Made by a program: the position numbers and the translations under genes. A stretch of DNA of 64,000 bases from the NCBI GenBank assembly GCA_963720545.1, contig OY970399.1, forward strand, positions 3,872,001-3,936,000, read 5' to 3'. Under the pieces are notes generated by a model. That model did no database searches. It was given only the letters and a program-made list of their open reading frames with translations, and had not been told where the DNA came from. This DNA is from an uncultured Acidobacteriota bacterium (lineage in GTDB: Bacteria; Acidobacteriota; Vicinamibacteria; Fen-336). Below are positions 1-53,336 of this stretch, in pieces (positions within the stretch are counted from its first letter, which is position 1; every line of letters starts with the position of its first letter).

Positions 1-202
1 CAAGCCACTTGATCATCGGGTTCAGCATCCCCATGATCATCAATCCCACGATGATGATGAGGAAGACTGGCACTAGCTGTACTACTAACCAGAGGCCCAC
101 TGCGACGAGGGCGATGCGCAGCAGCGTGTCCGTCGTTATCTGGATGCGCGACGGCGTACTAGTGTTCTTTCTCCCACAATATATACCACGCGTGATATTC
201 AC
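1..202 (-). CDS. AI-2E family transporter, N-terminal part (runs off the window start; start codon uncertain)
   Basis: Manual translation ...PSRIQITTDTLLRIALVAVGLWLVVQLVPVFLIIIVGLMIMGMLNPMIKWL matches the typical AI-2E N-terminus (TM helices ending LNP-x-x-x-WL); not in ORF track. Confidence 0.55.
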   Translation of the reverse strand, partial: MNITRGIYCGRKNTSTPSRIQITTDTLLRIALVAVGLWLVVQLVPVFLIIIVGLMIMGMLNPMIKWL

Positions 203-367
203 TGCTCGTATCGCGCCTGCGTTGGTGAGATGTGTGGTTGTGACCTCTTCGCCAGTTTCTAATATTGGTCATTTTCTGCAGGAGCGAACTAGCCGAAATT
301 CCCGGCAGCGCGTCTGGGTGATACCCCTCAATCGTGCGACAGTCCTCGCAGCTACCTTCCCCAAGTC

Positions 368-517
368 CTATCTGACGGTCCTTCCGCCGACAAAGTGCAT
401 TGCGAGAGAGACGAGAGCCACGAGCAATAGGATGTGGATCAGTCCGCTCGCGACGTGAAACACGGTAAAGCCGCCTATCCATGCAACTAAGAGAACGACA
501 AAGAGCGTCATCCACAT
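368..517 (-). CDS. Small membrane protein, lmo0937/DUF5670 family (49 aa)
   Basis: Manual translation MWMTLFVVLLVAWIGGFTVFHVASGLIHILLLVALVSLAMHFVGGRTVR; W-x-x-G...GLIHILL motif; GAGG upstream; below ORF-track cutoff. Confidence 0.8.
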   Translation of the reverse strand: MWMTLFVVLLVAWIGGFTVFHVASGLIHILLLVALVSLAMHFVGGRTVR

Positions 518-653
518 ACTCGTGAGCCTCACTTTTTCTTTTGCGGTATGGGTTCCACTGCGATGGTGAGCGAATGGCGGCTGCCGCCGCCATTCGCTTC
601 CAAGTGTCGGGCGGTTATCCCGTAGCGTCGGGGGAGCCGCAAGACGAGTCGCG

Positions 654-1202
654 CTATGAGATTGTGGCGGTCGTCTCCTTCACCGATGCTTCACCGGTAG
701 AGGAAACATCCTGGGCACCGGTCTGCTCAAGAATGTCCTTTGCACGTTCTCTCTCGGTAGAGCTGTCAGCGTGGACCGAAAGAAGAATCCCGCCGTCCTT
801 GACCCGACCCTCATAACGTTTGGCTTCGTACTCGGGGATTCCCATTCCAATGAGCGCACCCGTGAGCCCGCCGACCGCGCCACCGACTCCCGCTCCTGCG
901 AGTGCAGCCATGATGGGACCGGCGGCGATGAAGGGACCAAGTCCGGGGATCGCCAATGCGCCGATACCCGCCAACCACCCGAGCCCGCCCCCCAATACGG
1001 CGCCCGCGCCTGCGCCAGTCGAGGCACCTTCGGGCGCCTTGGTGTTCTTTTCGTGAGCGAAATCCTTAGTCCCTTCGCTGTGTGGGAACAGGACGGAGAT
1101 GTCTTCGTTGGAAAAGCGCCCCATCTTCAACGCTTCCACCGCATTTTCTACACTGGACTGGTCGGAATAGATGCCGAACACGGCCGTTTTGGTAACTGAC
1201 AT
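654..1202 (-). CDS. General stress protein (DUF3341/GSP17M-like, glycine-zipper membrane protein)
   Basis: MSVTKTAVFGIY...GAGAVLGGGLGWLAGIGALAIPGLGPFIAAGPI...GMGIPEYEAKRYE. Confidence 0.8.
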   Translation of the reverse strand: MSVTKTAVFGIYSDQSSVENAVEALKMGRFSNEDISVLFPHSEGTKDFAHEKNTKAPEGASTGAGAGAVLGGGLGWLAGIGALAIPGLGPFIAAGPIMAALAGAGVGGAVGGLTGALIGMGIPEYEAKRYEGRVKDGGILLSVHADSSTERERAKDILEQTGAQDVSSTGEASVKETTATIS

Positions 1203-1226
1203 TTGGATGCCTCTTCTCTCTCTCAA

Positions 1227-1655
1227 CTACTTTTTTGGTTGAACTTCCAGTTCGCTAACGACTTTGTCCTTCCCAACTACCTCCGCGGCCTTCGCTTCGA
1301 TCGAGAGTTTTTCGGCATCTGACCTAACCGGCCCTTTGAGGGTTACGATCCCGTCCTGGGAAACGACCTTGACGTTGTGTGCGTATGTGGACAGGGATTT
1401 ATCCTTCACGACTGATTGGCGAATTTGCCGTGCAATCTTGAGATCAGAACGATTGTTCAACTGGTCGCTCGCTGTCGGCTCACCGGCTTTGCGGTCGCGC
1501 TGGTTCACCTTCGTATTGTCTGCAGCGGGCGCTTGGGTAGTGCTTGCGGGATCCTGCGCGGCCCTAGCGTTTTCCTGTGAAAACGCTGAAACCAAGCCGA
1601 TAGCAAAAACGCCAATGACTACGGCGCAGGCAGTTTGTCCGAACGTATATTTCAT
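1227..1655 (-). CDS. BON domain-containing exported protein
   Basis: Signal peptide; DLKIARQIRQSVVKDKSLSTYAHNVKVVSQDGIVTLKGPV BON motif; RBS GAGGAG. Confidence 0.9.
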   Translation of the reverse strand: MKYTFGQTACAVVIGVFAIGLVSAFSQENARAAQDPASTTQAPAADNTKVNQRDRKAGEPTASDQLNNRSDLKIARQIRQSVVKDKSLSTYAHNVKVVSQDGIVTLKGPVRSDAEKLSIEAKAAEVVGKDKVVSELEVQPKK

Positions 1656-1737
1656 CTATGTCGCTCCTCATTCCTTCCAGCAACGTGTGATGCTGGCTGT
1701 GAGTCGCCTAACTCGAATGACGACCCCCGGAGCAATG

Positions 1738-1753
1738 AGCAACAATCGAGCCA
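1738..1753 (-). promoter_or_regulatory. Putative sigma54 (-24/-12) promoter for the BON/general-stress operon
   Basis: Minus strand TGGCTCGATTGTTGCT matches TGGCACG-N4-TTGCW with correct GG-N10-GC spacing, ~80 bp upstream of the BON start. Confidence 0.6.
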
Positions 1754-1988
1754 AGGAGTACGTCTGCGAGCGAACCCGCGGCGGTGGAGCGGCAGTCTGC
1801 CAGAGCGTTTTTCTACAGACGACATTCCTTTGCACGCTTGCGCCCTAATTGCTGACTCGAGTCTCTTCTTGGCTCACACCAGTCCGGGCTAGATAGCCCG
1901 GCGCAGACAAACGCATGGGCCGGGAAGAGCGAAGGCGTCATAGTGCTCCCCAAGGAACACCGCCCAGTACCCTTCAACAGAAAGCGTA

Positions 1989-2270
1989 CTAGTCCGCTGT
2001 GATCGGAGCGGCCGCGCCTTCCATAGTCGGGCTTTGCTTCGCAGCATCCTGGGCGCGAGATAGTCGCATAGTCGCTGTGGTGGGATCCTCTACTAGGCGG
2101 ATCTCAAACTTAAAGGCCGCGACGAACTTACCTTGCGACTCCACAACAACAATTTCCTGTCCATCTGGCAGGTACCTGACGCTAACAACCTTCCCGCAAT
2201 CGCCGCGAGCAACGGGAGGTGAGTCACGAAGAAACTCGACACGTAATCCCACAAGCGGATTGTGTTTCAT
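1989..2270 (-). CDS. Small hypothetical protein, predicted SH3/KOW-like beta-barrel (paralog A)
   Basis: LVGLRVEFLRDSPPVARGDCGKVV...; pattern shared with ORFs at 2554 and 3908. Confidence 0.55.
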   Translation of the reverse strand: MKHNPLVGLRVEFLRDSPPVARGDCGKVVSVRYLPDGQEIVVVESQGKFVAAFKFEIRLVEDPTTATMRLSRAQDAAKQSPTMEGAAAPITAD

Positions 2271-2553
2271 CGAGGAAGCTCCGGGTTAGGTTGGGGGGTG
2301 AACCTAAGCGACGGGCCAAAACGGGGTTTCGTGCTCAGGACACTCACCCTGTTCTAGCCCGTCAAGCAACGAATATAGTCACACCCGCGAAAATGGAGCA
2401 ATCAGGGAAATCCCGCACCCGGTCAGCGGAACGAAAGGGCATGAAGCTCGGGGCGGGCGTTTGCTAGGTCGATCCGCGGGACAGACGCTCTTGCCATACG
2501 ACAGAACGGCAAGTAGGTTGAAAATTGTCCTCCTCGAAACCTAGGCGTATGCA

Positions 2554-2766
2554 ATGGACGGCGTGCCCTCCCGGGGTCGCAGAGTAAAGCTACTAGTTGC
2601 CTTGACTCCAGCACCGTTAGGCGCTGTGTGTGTCGTAAAGAGCGAGTTCACCTATTCGGGTCGGCAGAGTCGAGAAGATGTTTTCCAACTCGTGTACGAC
2701 GGAACAACAATCAAAGCGTTCCGCAAAGAATTTGAGTTTGTTCCTTCGGAGACCGCGAAGCGTTAA
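2554..2766 (+). CDS. Small hypothetical protein, predicted SH3/KOW-like (paralog B)
   Basis: GRRVKLLVALTPAPLGAVCVVKSEFTYSG...EDVFQLVYDGT; clear similarity to the 3908 ORF. Confidence 0.6.
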   Translation: MDGVPSRGRRVKLLVALTPAPLGAVCVVKSEFTYSGRQSREDVFQLVYDGTTIKAFRKEFEFVPSETAKR

Positions 2767-3141
2767 GGCCTCCTGGGGTTGGCCCGGCGGCCAGGCATTT
2801 TCACCGAGAACTTGTCGTGACCGTTGACGCCGGGGTGTACAGTCCCCACCGTCTCTCCTGAGCCATCCCATACCGAGCTTCTCATCTGAAGGCATCGCCT
2901 TTTGAGGAGTGAACATGCTGAAGGGCTATCCGCCAAAAGGTACCAAAGTCAGATTCCTCACCGATGGGGTTCGCACCTTGCGGTTCATAGCCGCCGGCGA
3001 AACCTGAACGCTGATTTCGTCTCCGGACGGAGACATGAAAGAGCTTCCTCACGACTTATTCCTTGTCATGGACTGCCACGACAACATCGTGGTGGCTGAG
3101 CGCAAGGAGATCACCGAAGCAGAGTGACGGGGCGGGGTACG

Positions 3142-3336
3142 CTAATCACTAGGCTTGGACTTGGGTGCTTGCTTGGGTTGGCGGGGCCGTTTGTAGGTAT
3201 GTTCCTTGACCCGCAGGCATTGAACAGTCTCCACATCAGCCGTGTCCGCCAGGCGCTGAGCCTTGCCGCCACACTCAGTGCACCTCTTCCAGCCCAGAAA
3301 CTCACCGAGGTTAACTGCCTGCGGCCCACGTCCCAT
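3142..3336 (-). CDS. Possible small zinc-ribbon protein
   Basis: MGRGPQ...CTECGG...QCLRVKEH; CxxC plus later C/H and basic tail; no other support. Confidence 0.3.
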   Translation of the reverse strand: MGRGPQAVNLGEFLGWKRCTECGGKAQRLADTADVETVQCLRVKEHTYKRPRQPKQAPKSKPSD

Positions 3337-3466
3337 ACCCGCATCTTCTACGGGGGGATTTGACGCTACGCAAGACTCTTCAGGACCGCACACACTACTT
3401 TGCCCGCCCTGCCGCTTAGACCTGAGAGGAATTTTCACCAAGGTCCGTCCAGCGGCGCCTCGTCCG

Positions 3467-3482
3467 TGGCATCCAACCTGCA
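3467..3482 (+). promoter_or_regulatory. Putative sigma54 promoter, cassette copy 1
   Basis: TGGCATCCAACCTGCA, GG-N10-GC spacing, conserved in the second copy. Confidence 0.6.
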
Positions 3483-3516
3483 GTGCTGACCCATGAGAAT
3501 CCTAAAAGGGGCGTTC

Positions 3517-3693
3517 ATGGAACCTCGCACTTCAGATCCCGATGCAGAACCCGTTCCCCTCGACGACAAGCAGCCGAAGTACGGCGGCGTCAATCCCGGC
3601 AACACCAACAACGTCGATGAGCGTTTCTCGGATGACGTCGACGACGATGAAGACAATGACGAAGATCCGGGCGAGGCGGAACTGGGAGCGTAA
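3517..3693 (+). CDS. Small acidic protein, copy 1
   Basis: MEPRTSDPDAEPVPLDDKQPKYGGVNPGNTNNVDER + Asp-rich tail; RBS AAGGGG; several synonymous differences from copy 2. Confidence 0.75.
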   Translation: MEPRTSDPDAEPVPLDDKQPKYGGVNPGNTNNVDERFSDDVDDDEDNDEDPGEAELGA

Positions 3694-3750
3694 GAAACCA
3701 GGAAAGGCGTCGAGTATTTGCCCGCGCAGAATGAACAAGAGGGAAGAAAA

Positions 3751-3906
3751 TTGACGAAATGGCTGTTGGTTACAGCGCTAGCCCTTGGGCTGGCGGGTTG
3801 CGCCAGTGATCCGCCGGTGCCCCCAACACCGCCGGGAGACAACCTCCCATCGCCATCGCCTTCGCCAAAGCCAACACCGACACCCACGCCGCCATCGGGC
3901 CGGTGA
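3751..3906 (+). CDS. Small Pro/Ser/Thr-rich lipoprotein, copy 1
   Basis: TTG start; TKWLLVTALALGLAGC lipobox; (SP/TP)n tail. Confidence 0.7.
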   Translation: MTKWLLVTALALGLAGCASDPPVPPTPPGDNLPSPSPSPKPTPTPTPPSGR

Positions 3907-3907
3907 A

Positions 3908-4108
3908 ATGGACAGGCTCGTAGGCGAACACGTCAAGCTGTTGGTCGGCGTCGCACCGTTGGTGAAGGGCACGATATGCGTTGTCAGGGATGTACTGACC
4001 TATCGAGGTGCGGAGTTGCCAGAGGATCCGCTGTTCTTGGAGCATGATGGAACACGGGTTACTGTGCTACGCCGAGATGTTGAAGAGGTGAACGCTCTCA
4101 TCTCTTGA
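3908..4108 (+). CDS. Small hypothetical protein, predicted SH3/KOW-like (paralog C)
   Basis: MDRLVGEHVKLLVGVAPLVKGTICVVRDVLTYRG...EDPLFLEHDGT; ATG 1 nt after the lipoprotein stop. Confidence 0.6.
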   Translation: MDRLVGEHVKLLVGVAPLVKGTICVVRDVLTYRGAELPEDPLFLEHDGTRVTVLRRDVEEVNALIS

Positions 4109-4530
4109 CTAGCAACTTTGCTGGCGCCGATAGTGAAGTTCTTTTCGAAGCCGATGAACCTGTCGATTTGGGAGAGCCAACAGATCTGTTTTACCCCGCT
4201 CCTGTGGCGGTACGTGGGCCCCGTCCAACCGCCGAGCCCGTTACCCGTATTTTGAAATGGCGTAGCACGATCGGTTGATGTCGCCGATTTTTTGTTGACT
4301 ACATCTAGACCGCCATCCAGAGTGCGGGCGGTGGCTGCCTGCTGAAGGGGCCGGCCACCGAATGCTCGGTCCCTAGAGAATGCTCTCGCTACGGACCGGG
4401 CATTCTTTGCGTCGCCTTATCACGAGTCACGCTGCGCCAGCCTTTTATTCTTTTGTCCTTGGTGCGGCCGCCGGGTTTGTCGTGGCTCACCATTGCTCCA
4501 CGCCGCGCAGGTGCGCCAACCAACTCCTGG

Positions 4531-4546
4531 TGGCATCCAACATGCA
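4531..4546 (+). promoter_or_regulatory. Putative sigma54 promoter, cassette copy 2
   Basis: TGGCATCCAACATGCA. Confidence 0.6.
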
Positions 4547-4579
4547 GTGCTGCACGAAGGTAAACCCAAAAGGAGTGTT

Positions 4580-4780
4580 ATGGAACCTCGCACATCAGAT
4601 CCCGACGCAGAACCCGTTCCCTTCGACGACAAGCAGCCCAAGCATGGCGGCGTCAATCCCGGCAACACCAACAACGTGGATGAGCGTCTCGAGGCTGACG
4701 TCGACGACGATGAAGACGATGATGAAGATCAGGACGAGGACGAATCGGGAACGACAGAAACCAAGAAAGGCGTGGAGTAG
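4580..4780 (+). CDS. Small acidic protein, copy 2
   Basis: MEPRTSDPDAEPVPFDDKQPKHGGVNPGNTNNVDER + acidic tail; RBS AAGGAG. Confidence 0.75.
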   Translation: MEPRTSDPDAEPVPFDDKQPKHGGVNPGNTNNVDERLEADVDDDEDDDEDQDEDESGTTETKKGVE

Positions 4781-4812
4781 CACCACGCCAAATGAAATAA
4801 GAGGAAAGCAAA

Positions 4813-4987
4813 TTGACGAAACAACTCCTGTTAATTACAGCGCTGGCCCTCGGGCTAATCGGCTGCGCCAGCAATCCGCCCGCGCCTGGCACGACGCCAG
4901 CAGGGAACGTTCCTTCTCCCCCCCTCGCCCTCGCCCTCGCCATCGGTCAGCCCGACGCCCACCCCCACGCCCACCTCTAACCGATAA
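4813..4987 (+). CDS. Small Pro-rich lipoprotein, copy 2 (one extra C in the C7 run at ~4918-4924)
   Basis: TTG start, TKQLLLITALALGLIGC lipobox; removing one C restores SPPSPSPSPSVSPTPTPTPTSNR, like copy 1. Confidence 0.6.
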
Positions 4988-4998
4988 AGGGAGGAGCA

Positions 4999-5490
4999 AT
5001 GCCGGCTAAGACATCGAACGCTAGCAAGTCGCAACGCGGGACTGGAAAGCACGCGCTCGCGCTCCTAAAGAAGGACCACGAGACGGTTGCGGGCCTGTTC
5101 GAACAATTCGACAAAGCTAAGGAACCTAGCCGCAAGGCCAAGATCTTTAGCAGCATCAAGTCGGCGCTAGAAGTCCATGCGCGCATCGAAGAGCAGATCT
5201 TCTACAAGGAAGCCGAGAGCGAGGCGGGGCGTGAACTGCAGAAACAGCTTAAAGAGGCCCACGGGGAGCACGCCATCGTCAAGAAGTTGATGGGCGAGGG
5301 TGCCTCACTCGACCCGGACTCTGGTGAATTTGACGCTACCGTCGCCGGGCTGAAGGGGGCCGTCGAGCACCACGTCGAGGAAGAAGAAACGGAAATGTTC
5401 AAGGAGATCCGCAAGGCCTTCTCCCGCGCCGAGCTGCAGGAGATGGGTCAGCGTATGCAGGAGCTCAAGCGGAGTCTGCAGGCTCGATAG
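4999..5490 (+). CDS. Hemerythrin (HHE) domain protein
   Basis: LLKKDHETV, HARIEEQIFY, EAHGEH, HHVEEEETEMF motifs; RBS GGAGGAG. Confidence 0.9.
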   Translation: MPAKTSNASKSQRGTGKHALALLKKDHETVAGLFEQFDKAKEPSRKAKIFSSIKSALEVHARIEEQIFYKEAESEAGRELQKQLKEAHGEHAIVKKLMGEGASLDPDSGEFDATVAGLKGAVEHHVEEEETEMFKEIRKAFSRAELQEMGQRMQELKRSLQAR

Positions 5491-7854: not shown

Positions 7855-10114
7855 ATGTCGACAATGCCAGACAGCGCGAGCGCTTCTCCGATCGGCCGTG
7901 ACACGCCGCGCGTGGACGGGCCACACAAGGTCAGCGGGACCGCCCAATACACTTCCGATTTCCATTTTCCGGGGCTTCTCTACGCGGTTCCTGTCGAGGC
8001 GACGATCGCCAACGGCCGTATCGTCAAGCTCGACACGGCGGCGGCGGAGAAGATGCCCGGCGTGCGGGCGATCCTGCACCGCGAGAACATCGGCAAGATC
8101 TTCCGTTCCGTCGCGGGACCGGGATTCGAGGGCATCTGCGAGGAACGGCGCCCGCCGTTCGAGGACGACGTGGTCCGCTATTACGGCCAGTACGTTGCGG
8201 TGGCGGTGGCGGACCGGTTTGAGGCCGCCAAGGCCGCTGCGGACGCCGTGCGCGTCACCTACGCCGCCGAAAAGCCGAACGTCGCCACCGAGCTGACGGC
8301 CGACGACGACCCCGAGGTGGTCGCCACGTCGTTCGGTGACCGCAAGCGCGTCGACGGCGTGCGTGGCGACGCTGCCGCCGCCTTTGCCACGTCCCCGGTC
8401 AAGCTCGACCAGACGTACGTCACTCCCTCCGAGGCGCACAACCCGATTGAGCTGCACGCGACCACCGCGATCTGGGACGGGCCGGCGTTGACGCTCTACG
8501 AGACGGCGCAGGGAGTGTTCAACCTGAGGGGCGTGATCGCGCAGATGTTCGGCATGCAAAAGGAGAATGTCCGCGTCATCGCGAAGTACGTCGGTTCGGG
8601 ATTCGGCGGCAAGCTGTTCCCGTGGACCCAGTGCTCACTGGCTGCGGCCGCAGCGCGGCAAGTTGGCAAGCCCGTGAAACTGGTGGTGAGCCGCAAGATG
8701 ATGTTCCAGTCGGTGGGGCACCGCCCGCGCACACAGCAGCGCGTGCGCCTGGGCGCCACGCCCGAAGGCCGGCTGGTCTCGCTGCAGCACGACTACGTCT
8801 ATGAACGGTCGATGCTCGATGCCCATCACGAGGACTGCGGCGAAGCGACGCCGTTCCACTACAGCGTGCCCAACCTGCGGGTGTCGTTCGGGCGCGCCAA
8901 GCGGCACATCGGCGCGACCGCGGACATGCGCGGTCCCGGCGCCGTGCCCGGGCTCTACGCGACCGAGTCGGCGCTGAATGAACTGGCCGACCAGCTCAAG
9001 GTCGACCCGGTGAAGCTGCGCGTCATGAACGAGCCGAAGATCGACGAGTCGCTGGGCATTCCGTTCTCGTCACGCCATGTGCTCGAGTGCCTCGAGCGCG
9101 GTGCGAAGACGTTCGGCTGGTCGTCGCGCACTCCCGCGGTCGGTTCGATGAAGCGCGATGGCCTGACTCTCGGCTGGGGCATGGCGGGGGCCGCGTGGAT
9201 CGCCGCGCGCTTCGACGCAGCCGCCAGCATCGAGCTGCGCGACGATGGCACCGTTCGGGTCGCGTGCGGCACCCAGGACATCGGTACGGGCACCTACACG
9301 AACCTTGCGCAGCTCGCCGCCCACAAGACCGGCGTGCCACTCGCGAAGGTCGAGGTCGCGCTCGGTGATACGACGCTTCCCGAAGGGCCGATCTCGGGCG
9401 GTTCGATGGCGACCTCATCGGTGATCCCGGCCGTTTTTGCCGCGGCGGACAATGCCATCAAGGCGCTGCTCGGCATTGCCGCGACCACGCAGGGATCGCC
9501 ATTCGCGGCACGCCCGGCCAGCGAACTCGCCTTCGAAGGCGGGCGAGTCTTCGTAAAGGCCGATGGCGCCGCGGCCGGCGTGCCGTTCGCCGACATACTG
9601 CGCAAGGCCAACCTGCGCCAGGCCGCGGGCAGCGGCAAGTCGGCGGCGACGTTCGGCGATCCCAGTCCGAAGTTCTCGGTGCACTCCTACGGCTGTCACT
9701 TCGTCGAGGTCGACATGGCAGCCGGAAACCGCCCGGCTGCGCGTCAGCCGCGTGGTGACGGTCATCGATGCCGGCCATATCCTCAACCCGCTGGCGGGCC
9801 GCAACCAGATCGTCGGCGCCGTGGTGATGGGCATCGGCATGGCGCTGCTCGAGCACGTGTCGTACGACCCGCAGAACGGCGCGCCGATCAACAGCAACCT
9901 GGCCGACTACGTGGTGGCCGTGAACGCCGACGTGCCGCCGATCGACGTGCACTTCCTCGACTATCCCGACAAGGAGCTGAACGAGCTCGGCGCCCGCGGC
10001 ATTGGCGAGATCGGCCTGGCTGGTGTGGCCGCTGCCATCACCGCCGCGGTCCACCACGCCACCGGCGTGCGCGTGCGCGAACTGCCGGTAAAGATCGAGG
10101 ACCTGCTGGCCTGA
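7855..10114 (+). CDS. paoC: Aldehyde oxidoreductase molybdopterin-binding subunit (PaoC/YagR-like); +1 frameshift at ~9712
   Basis: GSGFGGK, MRGPG, QDIGTGTYT, GGSMAT; C-terminus (GARGIGEIG) continues in ORF 9563-10114. Confidence 0.9.
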
Positions 10115-43112: not shown

Positions 43113-44129
43113 ATGCGCGCGAGCCGGCTGCTCTCGATACTGGTGCTCCTGCAGCTGCGGGCGCGGTTGACGGCCGAGGCCCTCGCCGCGGAGTTCGAGG
43201 TTTCGGTGCGCACCATCTACCGCGACATCGAGGAGCTCGGCGCAGCCGGAATCCCGGTCTACGGAGACCGCGGCCCGGGCGGCGGCTTCCAGCTGCTCGA
43301 CGGATGGCAGACCCGCCTCACCGGCCTGGCGCGCGACGAGGCGGAGGCGCTCTTCATGATCGGCATGCCGGGGCCGGCCGCGGCCCTCGGCCTCGGTTCG
43401 GCGGCGGCCGCGGCGCGCAACAAGCTGCTCGCGGCGCTGCCCCAGGCGTGGACCGGCGGCGCCCTGCGCATCGCGGCGCGCTTCCACCTCGACCCCGTCG
43501 ACTGGTACCGCGCCGCGGAGGCGGCCGGGCACCTGCCGCGCGTGGCGCGCGCGGTGCTCGATGAGCGGCGCATCCGCTTCTCGTACGAGAGCTGGAGGGG
43601 GCAGAGGCTGCGGGTGGTCGAGCCGCTCGGCCTGGTGCTGAAGGCCGGTGCCTGGTACCTCGTCGCCGGCAGCGGCGCTTCGGTCCGCACCTACAAGGTG
43701 GCGAACATCCGCAAGCTCGCCGTGCTCGGCGCCACCCAGGCGTTCGTGCGCCCGGCCGGCTTCGACCTCGCCGTGCACTGGGCCGAGTCGCTGCGGCAGT
43801 TCGAGGCCGCGCTGCGCCCGGAGGTCGCGGTCCTGCGCGCATCGCCGCAGGGCCGCGTGCGCCTCGCGCGCCTCGGTGCCTGGGCTGCGGCGGCCGTGAA
43901 GGCGGCATCGCCTCTGCGCGGCGCGCGCGGGCTGATGCGGGTGCGACTGCCGATCGAGAACGTCGAGGACGCGGCCCTCCTGCTGCTCGGCATCGGGCCA
44001 CAGGTCGAGGTGGAGGCGCCCAGGGCGCTGCGCGAGCGCCTGGCGCAGCTCGCCGCGGAGATCGTGAGGAAGGCTGGCCCGCGCGCGCACACGAGGCGCA
44101 CGCGGGCTGGCGCTTACGGGAGCCGCTAG
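43113..44129 (+). CDS. YafY family HTH-WYL transcriptional regulator
   Basis: MRASRLLSIL...EVSVRTIYRDIE, GPGGG, GAWYLVA. Confidence 0.93.
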   Translation: MRASRLLSILVLLQLRARLTAEALAAEFEVSVRTIYRDIEELGAAGIPVYGDRGPGGGFQLLDGWQTRLTGLARDEAEALFMIGMPGPAAALGLGSAAAAARNKLLAALPQAWTGGALRIAARFHLDPVDWYRAAEAAGHLPRVARAVLDERRIRFSYESWRGQRLRVVEPLGLVLKAGAWYLVAGSGASVRTYKVANIRKLAVLGATQAFVRPAGFDLAVHWAESLRQFEAALRPEVAVLRASPQGRVRLARLGAWAAAAVKAASPLRGARGLMRVRLPIENVEDAALLLLGIGPQVEVEAPRALRERLAQLAAEIVRKAGPRAHTRRTRAGAYGSR

Positions 44130-47315: not shown

Positions 47316-48366
47316 TCAGGCGCGGCCGGGCACGGCGGTCGCGGCGCGCCGCAGCCACCGGTCGAAGAACCAGTTGCCGATGCGGCACTTGCCGAGCGCC
47401 GTGACGATGTAGCCCATGCGCTCGAGGCCATAGAGGAGCGAGTCGATGCGCTCCGGACCGCCGAGGCTGCTGGTGAGGGTCGTGATCGTCACCTCGCCCT
47501 CGCGCGCGATCGTCAGCAGCATCTCGCGCTCGTCCTTGCCGAGCGTCTGGAAGTCGACCGCGAAGAAGTTCGCGACCATTTCGTCGGCGGCCACCTGCGA
47601 CAGGGTCGCGCCGAGGTCGCGGCTCTCGAACAGGCGGCTCGCGATGAGCTGCACCAGGAACGGGTTGCAGCCGGTGCGGTCGATGATGGTGGCGCGCTCG
47701 TCGCCGGTGAAGTTGCCGCGCGCCAGCAGCTCGCCGGTCTCCTCGGGGGTCAAGCGGCGTCAGGTAGACGGGCGGGATGAAGCCTTGCAGGAACGGGGAA
47801 GTGGCGAAGCTCGTGGTCTCGTCGATCATCGCGAGCCTCTTGGTGGAGGTGAGCACCGAGCGCAGGTCGGGGCCCTTTTGCAGGATGCGCCGCAGCCGCG
47901 CCAGCACCACCGGCGCCTGTTCGGCGACCGTCAGCAGCTCCTCCGCCTCGTCCACCAGCAGCAGCATGCGCCAGCCGCTCTTGACGGTGCGGCGCGCCAG
48001 CGTCGTGAGCATGTCGGGCACCGTGAGGCCCTCGAGCTGGTCGATCTCGACGTCGGTGGCGCGGCGGAACGGGTCGCTGTCCTCGACGCTCTCCAGCAGG
48101 CTGTCGGCCAGCCCGCGGGCGTCGCCGCTGCCCTGCAGGTCCCAGTAGAGCGGCGCGTAGGGGGTCTGCGGATTCTGCAGCACCCGGTACTCGAGCTCCT
48201 TCAGGAGGCTGGTCTTGCCGAGGCGGCGTGCACCCACCACCCACAGCGAGTCGCGTTCGCCGTCGAGGATCTGGCGCACCAGGGAGCCGCGGCCGAAGAA
48301 GTTCTCGCCGCGCACCCAGCTGCCGGCGACGTACGGATTGCGCGCTTCGCTCACCACGCTGCCCAT
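47316..48366 (-). CDS. Stand-alone STAND-like P-loop ATPase; +1 frameshift at ~47752
   Basis: NPYVAG...FFGR, GARRLGKT, LLLVDEAE; C-terminus GCNPFLVQ + winged helix-like segment in ORF 47316-47753. Confidence 0.85.
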
Positions 48367-48370
48367 TCTC

Positions 48371-50829
48371 TCAGGAGACCGCTTGTGCGGCGCTGCCCCC
48401 CGCTTCGTCGGGGGCATCGCCTTCGCGCCCCTCTTCGTAGACGAAGGCTTCGCCGGCCGCTGCGATGTCGGCCGCGGTGACGGTCGAGCGGCCCTCCTCG
48501 AGCATGCGGTTGACCGCATGGATGCACAGCCGCTGGATCGCGTACGGCTTCATGCCGCTGATCCGCAGCACCGCCTCCACCGCGTCGCCCTGGTAGCGGA
48601 AGATGCCCTGGACCGGCTCGCGGATCAGCCCCTCGGCCTCTTCGCGCGAGAACTCCTTCAGCTCGATCTCGTCGAAGAAGTTGTACCAGGGGCTGCCTTC
48701 GCTCTTCCAGTTGCGGCGGATGCCGACGCCGCTCATCACCGCCACCAGGTGCTCGGAGAAGGTCTTCATGAAGATGCTGCGCAGCCGCTGGTTGACGCGG
48801 TCGGAGTACTCGTTCAGCACGTCCACCTCGTCGATGAGCAGCGCCAGCTTGACCTTCTTGGCGGTGCGTCCCTTCAGGTCCTCGATGACGCGCTGCAGGT
48901 CGTGCGCAGAAGTCGCGGCCGTCGTAGTCGTCGTCGTCGGGGCCGAACTTGCAGCGCCGCCATGGCCTCGGGCGAGGGCACCGTGGTCTCGACCACGTCG
49001 GCCATCACGGTGTGGAAGAACGCGGCTTCGGGAACGCCCTGCAGGTCGGAGGCGACCGGGAAGAAGCGGTAGTCGTCGCGGTCGTCCTTCTCGAGCGCCT
49101 TCTTCAGGTGGTGCAGCAGGCTGGTCTTGCCGATGCGTCGCTCGCCCGTGATCATCAGGCTGTTGTGGTGCAGGACGTTGAGGATCCGTGTCAGCAGCTT
49201 CTGCCGGCCGAAGAACATGTCGTCGGCGAGCACCGGCGCGCCGGCGATGTAGGGGTTGAAGCGCCGGTTGACCGCGCGCCGCCGTCGCACGCGCTGCATC
49301 GCGAAGCCGGCGCCGACGAGACCGAGGGCGGTGAGCGCCGCCGCCGGCAGGAAGGCGCGCGTCTCGTAAAAGCGCAGCTGCCGCGTGATGGTGAACGGCT
49401 GCGAGGCGCGCAGCCCCTGGGCGTCGGTCGCGACGATCAGCAACTCGTTGGCGCCGGGCGCCAGCGGGAAGGTGCTGTTGATCGCCTGGGTGCGGGCCGG
49501 CTCGCCGTCTTCGACCGCGGTCGGCCGCAGGTCGGCGACCAGCGCCTGGTTGAGGTAGATCTCGACGCGCGAGAGTTGCCGCTCGTCGCTGACCACCGCC
49601 TCCACCTTGACCGTCGGCTGGTCCACCTTCGGCTGCGGCACCGACGGCGCCATCATGACGATGAGCGGCATGCGGTTGGGGAAGAAGCGCGCCAGCAGCG
49701 AGGCCGCCGTCAGCTCCAGCGAGCGCTCGCGGCGCTGCGCGGCGCGTGCGTTCTGCGGGTCGAGGCGCAGGATTTCCTCGTAGCGCAGCTCGGCCTCGGG
49801 ATGCCTGCCGCTCGTGAACAGGGCATCCGCTTCCGACTCGAGACGGCTGATCTCCGCGCGGCGATCGGTCTCGACGCGCAGGCTGTTGACCCGGTCCTCG
49901 GCCTGGGCGCGCAGGCGGCGCGCTTCGGCGTTCCCGGGATCGGCGGCCGCCTCGGTGAGCGGGCGCAGCGCGTCGGCGAACTGCCCCGCGGCGAACAGGC
50001 GCTTGCCTTCCTCGAACTTGCCGGCGAGCTCCGCCTTCGAAGTGGTTTGCCGCAGCTGCTCCTGCGCGGCGGCGATGCCTTCCTGCGCCTCGCGGTTGAC
50101 GGCGTCGAGCGACAGCACCTCGGTGAACTTGAGGATGGCGTCGGTCTCGTTGCCGGCGCGCACCGCCGCCTTCGCCTCGTCGAGCGCCGTCTGCAGGCGC
50201 CGCGCGCGGGTCTGACGCTCAGCGGCCATGCGGCGCTCCTCGAGCAGGTCGTTCTTGCGCTTCTCGATCGACGGGATGAGCGCGGGGTTGATCTTCTGGT
50301 AGATCGACTCCGCCTTGGTCCAGGCGGCGAGCGCCTCGTCGTCGCGGCCGGCGCGGCGCTTGTCGTCGCCTTCCTTCAGGAAGCGCTCGGCTTCGTCGCG
50401 CGCGGCGCGGATCTGGTTCTGCTCGCTTTGCGACTTCACCTCGGCCTGGCGCGCCTGCAGCTTCTGCCACAACTCGGCGCGCTTCTTGATGATGCCCTGT
50501 GTTTCCTCGGAGCCGAACATCGCCACCGCGCGGTCGTTGTCGCCGCGCTCCAGGTAGCAAAGGCCGAGGTAGTAGTAGGGCGTGTAGTCGACGAAGTCGA
50601 CGCCGTAGGTGCGCACGCTCAGCTCCGAGCGCGGCCGCAGTTCCACGGCCTTCTGCAGGTCGGCGAGCGCCGCGGGGGTGCACTGGCCGGCGCGGAAGTT
50701 GCGGCCGCGGTCGTCGATGGCGCGCTGGTAGTAGACGTACCACTCGTCGGCCGCGCGCGCCGGGACGGCGCGCAGGCCGAGGTGGGTGGCGACCAGGAGG
50801 CAGGCGGCGACAATACGTCCGGACGGCAT
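48371..50829 (-). CDS. Signal peptide-TPR-Ig-TM-STAND ATPase; two +1 frameshifts at ~48952 and ~48908
   Basis: Signal peptide, TPRs (YYYLGLCY), Ig-like LAPGANELLIVATD, TM helix, NPYIAG...FFGR, GERRIGKT; Walker B LLIDEVD after frame correction. Confidence 0.85.
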
Positions 50830-50864: not shown

Positions 50865-51926
50865 CTACTTCTCGTACATCGCGGCAATCAGGGCCCCGCG
50901 CGCGGTGGCGGTGAGGGGATCCTTGGCGAGACGCACGCCGGCGATCTCGATGGGCAGCGGCCTGGCCTTCATGGTGCGCTCGAACAGCTCCTTGAAGCCC
51001 TTGGCCTTGGCGGTGCCGCCGGAAAGCACGATCGGCAGCGGCCGGTCGGTGCGCGGCAGCTTGTCGGTCGCGGCCAGCGACTTGCGCAGCGAGTCGACCA
51101 GCGCGTCGACCAGATCCTCGTAGTAGATGTTGAGGGCCTTCTCGATCTTGTCCTTGCCGGGACGGCCGAGGTCGAGCCCCTCTTCCTTCGCCATCTTCAC
51201 CCGCGTCGCCGACTCGGCAACCACCGCACCCACCGAGGCGTCGATCGAATCGCCGCCCTTCTGGAGGCTGTACATGATGGCCGGGATCGACAGGAAGGCG
51301 AGGGCGACGTTGCACATGCCACCGCCGCAGGAGATGCCGATGCCGCTGAAGTTGTTGTCCTCGAGTTCGCTGAAGACGACTGCCAGGCCCTCGTTGACCG
51401 CAACCGCGCGGTAACCGAGGCCGTCGAAGTACTTGCGCAGCGTGGCCTCGTGGTAGGTGAGCTCGCTCTCACGGCCGTCGGGCGCCGCGGGCACCGAGAA
51501 CGCCAGCACGTCGCCCTGGCCCTTGGCCTTCGGCACCACGTTCTGCACGATCACGTCGAGCACCTGCATCGCCGACTTCTCGCGCGCGTTCAGCAGGCCG
51601 AAGGCCATGGGCCGGCGGCTCTCCGCGCCGAACATGTTGGCGAACTTGTCGGTGGCGTCGCCGTAGACGACGATCTCCTCGCCGTCGCGGTAGTAGGGAA
51701 TGTTCTGCTGGCCGAGGATCGTCTCGGTGAAGCGCGAATACGGCACCTGGATGAACGCGTTCAATTGCGCCACCGTCTCGACCCCGTTGCCGCGCTTGCG
51801 GGCGGCGACGATGCGGCTCGTTCCGACATCGACGCCTTGGGGACTGCTACCCTTCTGGGCTTCCTCGTTCATCCGCTCCTCCGCATCGGGTTGCACCTTC
51901 CACAACTGATCCTTGCGTTCTTCCAT
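50865..51926 (-). CDS. Actin-like ATPase, volactin-like
   Basis: Phosphate-1 GVDVGT, NEGLAV, phosphate-2 GISCGGG, adenosine IVLSGGT, TARGA. Confidence 0.85.
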   Translation of the reverse strand: MEERKDQLWKVQPDAEERMNEEAQKGSSPQGVDVGTSRIVAARKRGNGVETVAQLNAFIQVPYSRFTETILGQQNIPYYRDGEEIVVYGDATDKFANMFGAESRRPMAFGLLNAREKSAMQVLDVIVQNVVPKAKGQGDVLAFSVPAAPDGRESELTYHEATLRKYFDGLGYRAVAVNEGLAVVFSELEDNNFSGIGISCGGGMCNVALAFLSIPAIMYSLQKGGDSIDASVGAVVAESATRVKMAKEEGLDLGRPGKDKIEKALNIYYEDLVDALVDSLRKSLAATDKLPRTDRPLPIVLSGGTAKAKGFKELFERTMKARPLPIEIAGVRLAKDPLTATARGALIAAMYEK

Positions 51927-51936
51927 TATCTAGGGC

Positions 51937-53262
51937 CTAGCCTCCGCTGGCGACGTCAACCTCGTCCTTCCGGGCCGAGACTTCCTGCGCTCCGGCCTTC
52001 GTCTGCTCCAGAATCCACCGGTCGTACATCGCGCGCTTGCGCAGGCGCAGCGCCTCGATGCTCTCGCCCGTCTGGCGGGCTTCCGCGACCAGCGCCTGCT
52101 CGGCGCTCGCGACGCCCGGCCACGGCTCGCCCTGCATCTTCGCCAGGAACTCGTCGTCGTAGTGGAAGCCGAACTCCAGCACCGCCGGCGACGGCACGTC
52201 GTAGGCGTTCGGCAGGCCGAACGCGCCGAACGGAAAGCCGCGCGCCCAGTCGACGTGGTGGCCGATGAGGTGCTCACGCGAGTTGACGCTCGTCAGGCCG
52301 TGCGTGACGCACATCTGCGGCGCGATCTCGTAGCGCAAGCGCAGATGCTCCGTGAGAGCGAGTCCCGATGCAAGCTGGGCCTGGGTGATGGGCAGCGCGC
52401 GCCCGCCCTCCCAGCGCGTCTCGAAGCACACGCCGATGAAGGCGCTGTTGAGGTTGAGGAAAGTGGTGTCGCCGTCCTTCCACACGGAAAAGCCCGCGTG
52501 GTTGGCGCGGCCGTTCTCCTCGACGATGCGGTAGACGCGGCCGAAGCGGTCGATGACGTAGTTGTAGAGCCGGCGCCTGGCGATGTACTTCATCAGGCCG
52601 TGCGAGCTCTTCTTGAGGTTGTCGTTGAACGATTCCTCGAGCGGCCAGATGTCGCTTTCCGAGGTGTGAAACAGGATGCCGACAGGCCTGGTGTAGGTCT
52701 CGCGCTGCATCCCGGTGCGGCGGAACACGCGGTATCGGCGCTCGGGGCCGGCCACGGCGAAATTGGTCTCGATGCGCAGGCCGTTGCTGTACTGCTCGAA
52801 GTTCGCGCCGCGCTCCACCAGCCAGATGCTCTTCGGCGCGGGCGCGGACGAGGCCGGCATCGGTTCGGCGACAGGATCGAGACGCGGCGCGCCTGCCAGC
52901 ACGGGCGCCGCGGCGCGGGCCGCGCGCGCGTCGCGCGTGCTCCAGCGGGCCGCCGCGAACAAGGAAGCCGCGAGCAGCGCGCCGACCACGGCGAAGCCGA
53001 GCCAGGCGGGACGGTGCCGCTTCGTCTTCCTGGCGACCGCGCGGCTCAGGCTGGAGTGGCCGAGCAACGGATCCACCGAGTCGTAGCCGAGCATGCGCTG
53101 CGCCATGCGGTGCACGCCGGGGATGGGGATGAGGCGCAGCAGGCGGTCGGTGCGGCGGTAGCGGGAGATCGACCCGCGCAGGTGGCGCAGCTTGGCCACC
53201 GGATCGGCAATGACCTCGGTTTCGCGCTCGAGCGCGCGCAGCAGCGGCTCGCCTGTGTTCAC
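51937..53262 (-). CDS. Membrane-anchored N-acetylmuramoyl-L-alanine amidase (Amidase_2/PGRP fold)
   Basis: TM helix at ~aa 86-105; ILFHTSE, YNYVIDRFG, ANHAG, IGVCFE, VTHG; RBS AGGAG. Confidence 0.85.
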   Translation of the reverse strand: MNTGEPLLRALERETEVIADPVAKLRHLRGSISRYRRTDRLLRLIPIPGVHRMAQRMLGYDSVDPLLGHSSLSRAVARKTKRHRPAWLGFAVVGALLAASLFAAARWSTRDARAARAAAPVLAGAPRLDPVAEPMPASSAPAPKSIWLVERGANFEQYSNGLRIETNFAVAGPERRYRVFRRTGMQRETYTRPVGILFHTSESDIWPLEESFNDNLKKSSHGLMKYIARRRLYNYVIDRFGRVYRIVEENGRANHAGFSVWKDGDTTFLNLNSAFIGVCFETRWEGGRALPITQAQLASGLALTEHLRLRYEIAPQMCVTHGLTSVNSREHLIGHHVDWARGFPFGAFGLPNAYDVPSPAVLEFGFHYDDEFLAKMQGEPWPGVASAEQALVAEARQTGESIEALRLRKRAMYDRWILEQTKAGAQEVSARKDEVDVASGG

Positions 53263-53336
53263 GGACTCCTAAATCCTTTGTGGCCTGCGAATTATAGGAC
53301 ACGAATTTCGGACCCGGCAATGCTTTCGCGAAGCCG

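Follow-up and report, generated by a model that had tools for sequence, protein, structure and literature searches.

Bacteria mostly pass signals across their membranes through two-component systems, Ser/Thr kinases, anti-sigma/extracytoplasmic function (ECF) sigma pairs, chemoreceptors, cyclic-nucleotide enzymes and ToxR-like one-component proteins. STAND NTPases, recognized by a Walker A motif GxxxxGK[ST], a Walker B motif hhhhD[DE] and a tripartite nucleotide-oligomerization domain (NOD) module, carry their sensor repeats and effector on the chain of the NTPase and in its compartment. P-loop NTPases embedded in the membrane are also known, such as the KAP NTPases. Tmn/YobI is reported to be a membrane-embedded, defence-associated P-loop NTPase (PMC13001434), and a 2025 preprint mentions 'transmembrane STAND ATPases' fused to proteases (bioRxiv 10.1101/2025.11.14.688446). 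Here we analyse two adjoining genes, A and B, in a window of 64,000 nucleotides (nt), the whole stretch of DNA studied, from an uncultured soil bacterium of the Acidobacteriota (contig OY970399.1, positions 3,872,001-3,936,000; assembly GCA_963720545.1). We put at roughly 60 per cent the probability that their products, as predicted from sequences and models, form a two-protein transmembrane signalling module of ATPase_2/STAND-like P-loop NTPases.

Protein A consists of a signal peptide, a TPR/helical ectodomain, an immunoglobulin (Ig)-like beta-sandwich, one transmembrane helix with a poly-Arg stretch, and a P-loop NTPase (Table 1). A first-pass annotation of the window had listed the same parts and NTPase motifs, and the length that it gave for the repeats, ~450 amino acids (aa), needs correction, the helical region being ~360 aa long. 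The N-terminus, MPSGRIVAACLLVATHLGLRAVPARA, is followed by ADEWY, with the cleavage site predicted at ARA/AD; signal peptides are typically cleaved by the AxA rule. In the helical region, which contains a conserved beta-hairpin (RTYGVDFVDYTPYY), TPR_2 scores 35 bits against a cut-off of 27, and a profile comparison with designed TPR proteins gives E 1.9e-29. Protein A was modelled through its intact homologue P0002, which is 71% identical to it (AlphaFold2, 52-sequence alignment, mean predicted local distance difference test (pLDDT) 85.9). The model has helices at residues 28-380, a sandwich of seven strands at 387-481 (block pLDDT 79-96), a long helix at 491-520, an alpha/beta NTPase at 541-720 and a four-helix lid extending to the C-terminus, after which no winged helix was found. 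In P0002 numbering, the ectodomain residues W28, Y73, Y80 and P82 are invariant. At the sequence level the Ig-like domain gave weak matches only, to Big_7 (E 0.024) and to the sulfite-oxidase chain 6y0k (E 0.0019).

The membrane topology of A recurs throughout its orthologues. All 61 that were extracted have a signal-like hydrophobic N-terminus ending in small-x-small before a conserved WY motif. A transmembrane segment was flagged at residues 476-539 in 46 of 52 orthologues, followed by four to nine Lys/Arg in the next 15 residues and then by RRFNPY; in the remaining six the threshold missed the segment or chose another peak. From the positive-inside rule for membrane proteins, and from the dependence of an ATPase on ATP in the cytoplasm, we predict a periplasmic TPR-Ig part and a cytoplasmic NTPase. 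The earlier proposal of a sensor outside and an NTPase inside is thereby upheld at the level of prediction.

Protein B is a soluble NTPase paralogous to that of A, extended by helical and winged-helix domains. Its ATG follows the stop codon of A after 4 nt ('gaga'), and it repeats the motifs of A (NPYVAG...FFGR, Walker A GARRLGKT, Walker B LLLVDEAEE), just as the first-pass annotation had described a paralogous NTPase with the same motifs 4 bp after A. The model of a B orthologue (pLDDT 84.5) shows strands and helices up to residue ~195, helices at 200-266, and a winged helix at 270-342 that includes a beta-hairpin at 314-323. Neither the Pfam scan nor the model revealed a further domain on the window's B, and no third copy of an A/B-type NTPase was found in its own genome.

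The Walker A and B residues G, K, T, D and E do not vary across 52 sequences of A and 39 of B, and both proteins follow the STAND P-loop pattern, A with GERRIGKT and LLIDEVD and B with the motifs just given. The tripartite NOD module of NTPase, helical and winged-helix domains is complete in the B model and incomplete in that of A, so that the name STAND, which the first-pass annotation applied to both, suits B, and A less well. The arrangement of sensor and effector departs from that of STAND proteins in both, as the TPR-Ig part of A lies beyond the predicted transmembrane helix and the window's B carries neither sensor nor effector. Full-length structural matches of the B model were the archaeal ATPases 2qen (E 8e-13) and 2fna (E 1e-11), at a TM-score (template modelling) of ~0.6, followed by plant nucleotide-binding leucine-rich repeat (NLR) resistosomes, Orc1/Cdc6, Apaf-1, Avs3, CED-4 and MalT. 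The cytoplasmic part of A matched proteasomal Rpt subunits, RFC, Orc1/Cdc6, RuvB, RuvBL and 2qen/2fna. When solved structures were searched by sequence with the profile of B, no match fell below E 0.2.

Against ATPase_2 (PF01637, cut-off 33.2), A orthologues scored 35.4 (L064), 35.8 (P0138), 36.0 (P0091) and 36.2 (P0163), that of L046 31.6, the window's frameshift-split A pieces 16.5 and 17.7, and B 17-29 bits. Against nSTAND1 (PF20703, cut-off 27.1), the window's B fragment scored 26.6 and its intact orthologues 29.4 (L003), 36.6 (L079), 36.8 (L080), 34.4 (L053) and otherwise 20-27; A had no nSTAND1 match, its best being nSTAND6 at 18.2 against a cut-off of 27.7. The window's B fragment also passed AAA_22 (PF13401, cut-off 27) with 32.6 bits, the match spanning positions 5-123 of the 130 in the profile; as AAA_22 is a generic P-loop model, little can be read from this as to function. 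No NCBIfam family reached its cut-off for A or B. In PADLOC-DB 2.0, A had weak matches to PDC-S01 (E 1.8e-5) and PDC-S27 (E 1.2e-4), limited to a segment of 43-48 residues that begins with FFGR and takes in the P-loop. Neither B nor the amidase and actin encoded upstream matched any family, and kinase-type B proteins matched generic kinase models only. No HisKA/HATPase_c transmitter or receiver domain was detected in A or B by the Pfam scan. Since the scores hover round the ATPase_2, nSTAND1 and AAA_22 cut-offs, NCBIfam holds no model and the PADLOC matches are weak, A and B would be best placed at the boundary between ATPase_2 and STAND among the P-loop NTPases, B as a full NOD-like module and A as a shortened one.

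The two genes occur together well beyond the window. In a locus scan with one genome per species, at least 478 loci encode a relative of A. Eighty loci were kept, from Vicinamibacteria, Holophagae, Thermoanaerobaculia, Sulfomarinibacteraceae-like lineages and Woeseiaceae (Gammaproteobacteria). A B-type open reading frame (ORF) adjoins A in 77 of them, and in the other three (L006, L018, L073) A lies at a contig edge; the first-pass annotation had suggested examining this co-occurrence, and linkage proved to be the rule. The A-B gap ranges from -4 to 100 nt; among the 35 loci measured in the window's clade, 20 have a gap of at most 7 nt. All 30 relatives of the window's family/order possess the locus, and across the phylum A was found in seven of 301 genomes, the window's own included. 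In a quick maximum-likelihood tree of the NTPase cores, from which only the A/B split is taken, the A (31) and B (21) rows separate on one branch with a Shimodaira-Hasegawa-like approximate likelihood ratio test (SH-aLRT) value of 100; the tree drew on one in two A and one in three clade-B sequences, and of 38 distant B ORFs 30 were removed by a motif filter. As the cores split on a single branch, the duplication, judged from this tree, is older than the spread of the pair, and the paralogy is old.

The NTPase half of A is not rare. In addition to the scanned loci, its C-terminal half matched 973, 459 and 141 representative clusters (50% identity) at E ≤ 1e-3, 1e-10 and 1e-30, respectively. 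In full-length matches it is nearly always C-terminal; databases, where they name these proteins, use 'TPR repeat protein' or 'protein kinase'.

Beyond the window's clade, a domain scan of 40 B-type ORFs found a C-terminal Ser/Thr kinase (Pkinase) in 20, an N-terminal OmpR/CadC-type Trans_reg_C domain in 11, an ECF sigma factor in two (in one of them behind a kinase) and nothing further in eight. Kinase fusions also account for 21 of 23 longer database relatives of B, one of these having an ECF sigma domain as well. Judged by the kinase, Trans_reg_C and sigma domains fused to its relatives, B is the output-carrying subunit of the pair and effector-less only in Vicinamibacterales; the word effector-less, given to B by the first-pass annotation, therefore suits B in the window's clade only. 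B-type fusions to ECF sigma (PF07638) are found in L058 (8267..11092), L074 (10310..12043) and P0033, once as NTPase-winged helix-kinase-sigma in one chain. Two Woeseiaceae loci (L046, 6271..7893, +; L061, 6160..7812, +) have a gene for a DUF5666+DUF2807 protein directly upstream of A, and before that gene a divergent B of the Trans_reg_C-NTPase form; the DUF5666+DUF2807 protein is a candidate target or periplasmic partner.

Variation is also seen on the sensor side. Among ten distant proteins with an A-type NTPase half (members noted are P0159, P0169, P0175, P0163, P0138 and P0140), four have Reg_prop beta-propellers, two of these together with Y_Y_Y; one has a longer TPR array, one a FadL/Toluene_X-like N-terminus, three are shorter (~715 aa) and one, P0140, is a SIR2-nSTAND1 fusion lacking a transmembrane helix. 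We take the Reg_prop/Y_Y_Y cassette to be the periplasmic sensor of hybrid two-component systems, its role in Bacteroides. The junction of transmembrane helix, basic stretch and FNPYxAG is kept in nine of the ten, and a predicted ectodomain that varies in front of a constant membrane-proximal NTPase in these nine is the pattern expected of a receptor family. In a metagenome scan for P0163, seven loci matched the propeller part only, and none had a match to an A- or B-type NTPase (either hidden Markov model, E ≤ 1e-3). Taken together, predicted topology, linkage and the exchangeable outputs of B form the pattern expected of a sensor-transducer pair.

We propose the following mechanism. A would be the receptor, with its TPR-Ig ectodomain in the periplasm and a single transmembrane helix leading to the cytoplasmic NTPase. 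A periplasmic cue, presumably derived from the envelope, would alter the association of the ectodomain and transmembrane helix, and this would set the nucleotide state or the assembly of the NTPase. Because the NPYxAG...FFGR element begins within ~15 residues of the membrane, a change in the transmembrane helix could act directly on the nucleotide-binding domain. The NTPase of A would then recruit or release B, presumably through contacts between the paralogous NTPase domains, so that hetero-oligomerization of A and B may be the switch. B, as the soluble transducer, would deliver the output: elsewhere through its fused Ser/Thr kinase, OmpR-type DNA-binding domain or ECF sigma factor, and in the window's clade possibly through action of its winged helix on DNA, or through a direct effect on the actin-like protein or amidase encoded upstream. 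As A and B share a putative operon with a membrane-anchored amidase and a Volactin-family actin, their output there probably bears on cell-wall remodelling or cell shape. A wider claim, to which we give slightly less than even odds, is that A-types and B-types constitute a separate, undescribed class of prokaryotic transmembrane signalling based on nucleotide-dependent hetero-assembly and not on phosphotransfer, with TPR-Ig, beta-propeller/Y_Y_Y or other ectodomains and with kinase, OmpR-type DNA-binding, ECF sigma or bare winged-helix outputs; in Vicinamibacterales it would control Volactin and amidase, and hence cell shape or separation.

In the assembly, both genes are interrupted by 1-nt insertions, each one extra base relative to homologues. 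The first-pass annotation had noticed frameshifts but undercounted them: there are three, two in A and one in B, and A is broken twice instead of once. Across its breaks A reads ...EAMAAL, KFGPDDDDYDGRDF, AHDLQRVIEDL..., where intact homologues read ...LKFGPDDDSYDGRDFSHDLQRVIEDLKG..., and B switches frame at ...YLTPL/TPEETGELL. The insertions were judged against diverged homologues, the highest DNA identity to any relative being 78% on an aligned stretch and 76% in the best long match. Homologues of A in the protein database are unbroken (699-827 aa) in 13 of 14 matches, the fourteenth being the window's own truncated 651-aa call. When the frames are followed, no in-frame stop or other decay is seen, A keeps 67 of 68 family-invariant residues and B 72 of 77, the five changes being conservative, and the GC content at third codon positions (GC3) is at least 0.9 in all A/B pieces away from the junctions.

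Breaks of this kind are frequent in the assembly. A Viterbi parse of the 4.09-Mb genome gave 2005 same-strand frame transitions, of which 352 have no stop within 45 nt; both flanks are at least 150 nt long in 164 of these stop-less switches, and 263 (75%) belong to the same +1 class, with one extra base. They are strongly clustered (184 spacings below 1.5 kb against 42.5 expected). Seven lie in the window, the three in A/B and others at 9716, 21021, 34783 and 39902, splitting genes whose translations we read as a molybdo-hydroxylase large subunit (9716), a GH57 enzyme (21021) and an ABC-F ATPase (39902). The gene calls of this single-contig assembly are expected to be fragmented by such switches. 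Given the 352 clustered switches genome-wide and the invariant residues kept, the three breaks in A and B are most likely assembly errors, as far as sequence comparison can tell, and both genes are probably intact in the organism.

Alternatively, the insertions are real and A and B are true pseudogenes, the module decaying here while functional in relatives. Three breaks in ~1.2 kb of two adjoining genes would fit such decay, as would the public gene call for A (P0001), which ends at 651 aa. We consider this unlikely, since the same type of break recurs throughout the genome, also in the ABC-F, GH57 and molybdo-hydroxylase genes, frame correction leaves no trace of decay in either residues or GC3, and the locus is kept in all 30 relatives. 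Programmed frameshifting was rejected: three separate +1 sites share no visible motif, the genes of relatives are in a single frame, and hundreds of like breaks occur genome-wide.

Table 1. Predicted features of the A-B locus and adjoining genes (window coordinates)
Feature	Positions	Strand	Basis or remark
Sigma-70-like promoter match TTGCCG-18-TATAAT	53291..53320	-	29 nt upstream of amidase start; consensus match only
Membrane-anchored peptidoglycan amidase (Amidase_2), gene 1 of putative operon	51937..53262	-	Pfam Amidase_2, 55.5 bits
Volactin-family actin-like ATPase, gene 2 of putative operon	50865..51926	-	PF25216
Gene A	48371..50829	-	ATG at 50829; stop TGA 48373..48371
A, pieces in three frames	48952..50829; ~48909..48948; 48374..48907	-	
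A, signal peptide, aa 1-26, ...VPARA/ADEWY	50752..50829	-	sequence; AxA cleavage rule
A, helical/TPR region, predicted periplasmic	49666..50751	-	Pfam TPR, Protein Data Bank profile matches, model
A, Ig-like beta-sandwich adjoining the membrane, aa ~389-487	49369..49665	-	P0002 model
A, transmembrane helix AFLPAAALTALGLVGAGFA (helix aa 492-510) and QRVRRRR stop-transfer	49276..49356	-	hydropathy
A, NTPase and helical lid, predicted cytoplasmic	48374..49257	-	motifs, model; winged helix absent
A, NPYIAG	49240..49257	-	motif
A, FFGR	49204..49215	-	motif
A, Walker A GERRIGKT	49123..49146	-	motif
A, Walker B LLIDEVD	48821..48841	-	motif
A, SPWYNFF	48674..48694	-	motif
A, frameshift 1, CTG-C-AAG-TTC (homologues L-K/R-F-G-P)	48946..48951	-	1-nt gap in 2/3 relatives aligned across the site
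A, frameshift 2, TTC-TGCG-CAC (homologues F-S/A-H)	48905..48908	-	1-nt gap in 11/11 aligned relatives
Gene B	47316..48366	-	ATG at 48366; stop 47316..47318
B, pieces in two frames	47755..48366; 47319..47750	-	
B, Walker A GARRLGKT	48211..48234	-	motif
B, Walker B LLLVDEAEE	47938..47964	-	motif
B, frameshift, CCG-CTTG-ACC (homologues P-L-x-P/x-E-E)	47751..47754	-	1-nt gap in 10/12 alignments; other two end before the site
S8 subtilase gene, 1032 aa	44126..47224	-	92 nt downstream of B
WYL regulator gene	43113..44129		exception to the minus-strand run

Genes were placed by GC3 periodicity and a codon-model Viterbi parse trained on long ORFs of the same genome. All genes at 44.1-53.3 kb lie on the minus strand, the exception being the WYL regulator gene, and from 5' to 3' the promoter match is followed by the amidase gene, the Volactin gene, A and B. 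The promoter match fits at 10 of 12 positions, two such sites being present in the region against 0.3 expected, and is a candidate start for a putative four-gene operon amidase-Volactin-A-B. The amidase has a hydrophobic stretch (PAWLGFAVVGALLAASLFAAA) N-terminal to its Amidase_2 domain. The Volactin gene product belongs to PF25216, for which it scores 269.5 bits (E 6.4e-80; cut-off 35) in a match spanning positions 3-321 of the 321 in the profile. Downstream of B, the S8 subtilase combines PPC and HYDIN/ASH-type Ig domains with a C-terminal outer-membrane beta-barrel. This peptidase and the WYL regulator were rejected as parts of the system, a homologue of either being nearby in none of the 80 related loci. 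At the far end of the window, positions 1..5044 have a GC content of 0.565-0.587 against ~0.70 elsewhere, are non-coding by the host-trained codon model and contain small ORFs with BON, ActD/YflT-like and hemerythrin domains. Ribosomal RNA was rejected as the reason for the low GC of this segment, as it gave no Rfam match.

The upstream genes are constant companions of A and B in the window's clade: amidase and Volactin precede the pair wherever the contig has room. Volactin does so in 40 of 43 Vicinamibacteria-type loci, the other three contigs beginning inside A, and in 38 related loci the amidase gene comes before those of Volactin and A. The other 37 kept loci (L046-L082) have A and B with neither amidase nor Volactin. 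Across the phylum, ten of the 301 genomes encode a Volactin family member and three of these also A; in control genomes it was matched only in Haloferax volcanii. The Volactin neighbourhood was inspected in all seven genomes lacking A. In two, both of one family, amidase, Volactin, a HisKA/HATPase_c kinase and a sigma-54 response regulator stand in a row; two have a SPOR protein gene, amidase and Volactin, one amidase and Volactin, and one Volactin and a ParA-like gene, while the gene parse of the seventh was too sparse. The pair of Volactin and a membrane-anchored Amidase_2 protein recurs in several Acidobacteriota families (L097, L100, L101, L102, L103). A two-component system thus appears to occupy the slot of A-B after amidase-Volactin in another acidobacterial family, and these few cases suggest that the signalling pair is functionally tied to a cell-wall/cytoskeleton module. 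The locus links a Volactin-family actin to a bacterial cell-wall amidase and may offer an entry into cell-shape control in Acidobacteriota. Volactin is discussed for Haloferax and not for bacteria in the accessible part of PMC10869688.

The same neighbourhood could be read without any signalling, A and B being an AAA+-like membrane anchor or loader that assembles or remodels the co-encoded actin-like filament and amidase at the wall. The cytoplasmic domain of A does match loader and initiator AAA+ proteins (RFC, Orc1/Cdc6, RuvB) besides STAND-like ones, the operon keeps its four genes on every contig long enough to hold them, and SPOR-domain genes adjoin the amidase-Volactin pair in another family. 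However, A and B do without amidase and Volactin in 37 loci, where B has kinase, helix-turn-helix (HTH) or sigma outputs that a filament loader would not need; the ectodomains of A are swapped as in receptors, and a two-component system is found in the same slot elsewhere. We therefore regard a loader as improbable.

Still less credible to us is a STAND-type anti-phage or conflict system, in which A would sense an invader-related envelope cue and B trigger a protective or suicidal response. It could draw on the resemblance of the B fold to the NOD modules of NLR and Avs proteins, on the weak matches of A to PADLOC candidates, on the distant SIR2-nSTAND1 fusion and on the patchy distribution in the phylum. 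In addition, some intact B orthologues pass the cut-off of nSTAND1, which Kaur et al. 2021 defined in conflict systems (PMC8195603), and the preprint mentions 'transmembrane STAND ATPases' as sensors in Pepco protease systems (bioRxiv 10.1101/2025.11.14.688446). Yet one syntenic operon in 30 of 30 relatives is core-like and not island-like, the outputs are regulatory (kinase, OmpR-type HTH, ECF sigma) instead of nucleases, NADases or pore-formers, no PADLOC model matches B, amidase or actin, and the only recurrent neighbours of A-B are cell-wall and cytoskeletal genes.

Several observations nevertheless count against a signalling pair. The patchy distribution (seven of 301 genomes) is a pattern also of mobile defence genes, A has partial matches to the candidate defence families PDC-S01 and PDC-S27, and the distant relative P0140 is a SIR2-nSTAND1 fusion without a transmembrane helix. 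Three frameshifts in 1.2 kb make a dense cluster. The signal peptide and transmembrane helix of A are predicted from hydropathy and the positive-inside rule. The B of the window's clade has no recognizable output domain, which makes its output there a guess. Amidase and Volactin are linked to A-B by adjacency only, amidase-Volactin occurring also without A-B and A-B also without amidase-Volactin, and the equivalence of the slot rests on two genomes of one family.

No description of an A-B receptor-partner pair was found by full-text literature search, supplementary clade tables aside. The pair is not described in the accessible parts of Kaur et al. 2020 (PMC7159879), PMC8195603, the 2025 preprint or a 2026 survey of prokaryotic STAND proteins (PMC13581612). 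If our reading as a signalling module is correct, a STAND/AAA+-like NTPase transmitter with a sister output NTPase would add a mechanism to bacterial transmembrane signalling.

Among known proteins, archaeal ATPase_2 (PF01637; 2qen PAB2304, 2fna SSO1545) and Orc1/Cdc6 share the succession NTPase, helical lid, winged helix; they include the best full-length matches of B and are also among the matches of the cytoplasmic part of A. ATPase_2 shares with A and B the GR motif before the P-loop, its profile aligning from position 1, and several A orthologues pass its cut-off (35.4-36.2 against 33.2) while B stays below it. A further hallmark of ATPase_2 is presumably the 'SP..' loop that follows strand 4, which reads SPWYNFF in A and SPFLQGF in B. 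Unlike A-B, these proteins are soluble and have no ectodomain, and we know of none acting as a receptor-transducer pair. In cytoplasmic STAND regulators such as MalT and AfsR-type SARP-NB-ARC-TPR proteins, an NTPase switch is likewise joined to TPR repeats that serve as sensor and to an output that binds DNA or is linked to a kinase. The MalT structure 8bob and the STAND-TPR protein 6mfv are among the structural matches of B, and the N-terminal half of AfsR-like proteins resembles the Trans_reg_C-NTPase forms of B. In A-B, by contrast, the sensor repeats are N-terminal, on a separate chain and, as predicted, across the membrane, the output sits on a second, paralogous NTPase, and A has no winged helix.

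The (hybrid) two-component receptors with Reg_prop/Y_Y_Y follow the same logic of periplasmic sensor, transmembrane helix, transmitter and output partner, a likeness of function only. Transmitter and receiver of A-B are both P-loop NTPases, and nucleotide-dependent assembly, not phosphotransfer, would be the putative currency. The Pepco 'transmembrane STAND ATPases', Tmn/YobI and KAP NTPases, compared here by their accessible descriptions only, resemble A in using a membrane-tied P-loop NTPase as sensor or switch. They differ in being defence-associated and protease-fused or solitary, and in those descriptions none is reported with a TPR-Ig ectodomain and a paralogous output partner. In their division of labour, A and B resemble the sensor/helper NLR pairs of plants (NRC network), in which two paralogous NOD-type NTPases also divide sensing and execution. 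The NRC2, NRC3 and NRC4 resistosomes are among the structural matches of B, with homology at the level of the NOD fold only (11-17% identity). Plant NLR pairs are cytosolic, immune and much larger; A and B, if they signal as proposed, would be a bacterial analogue of such pairs that reads the exterior of the cell.

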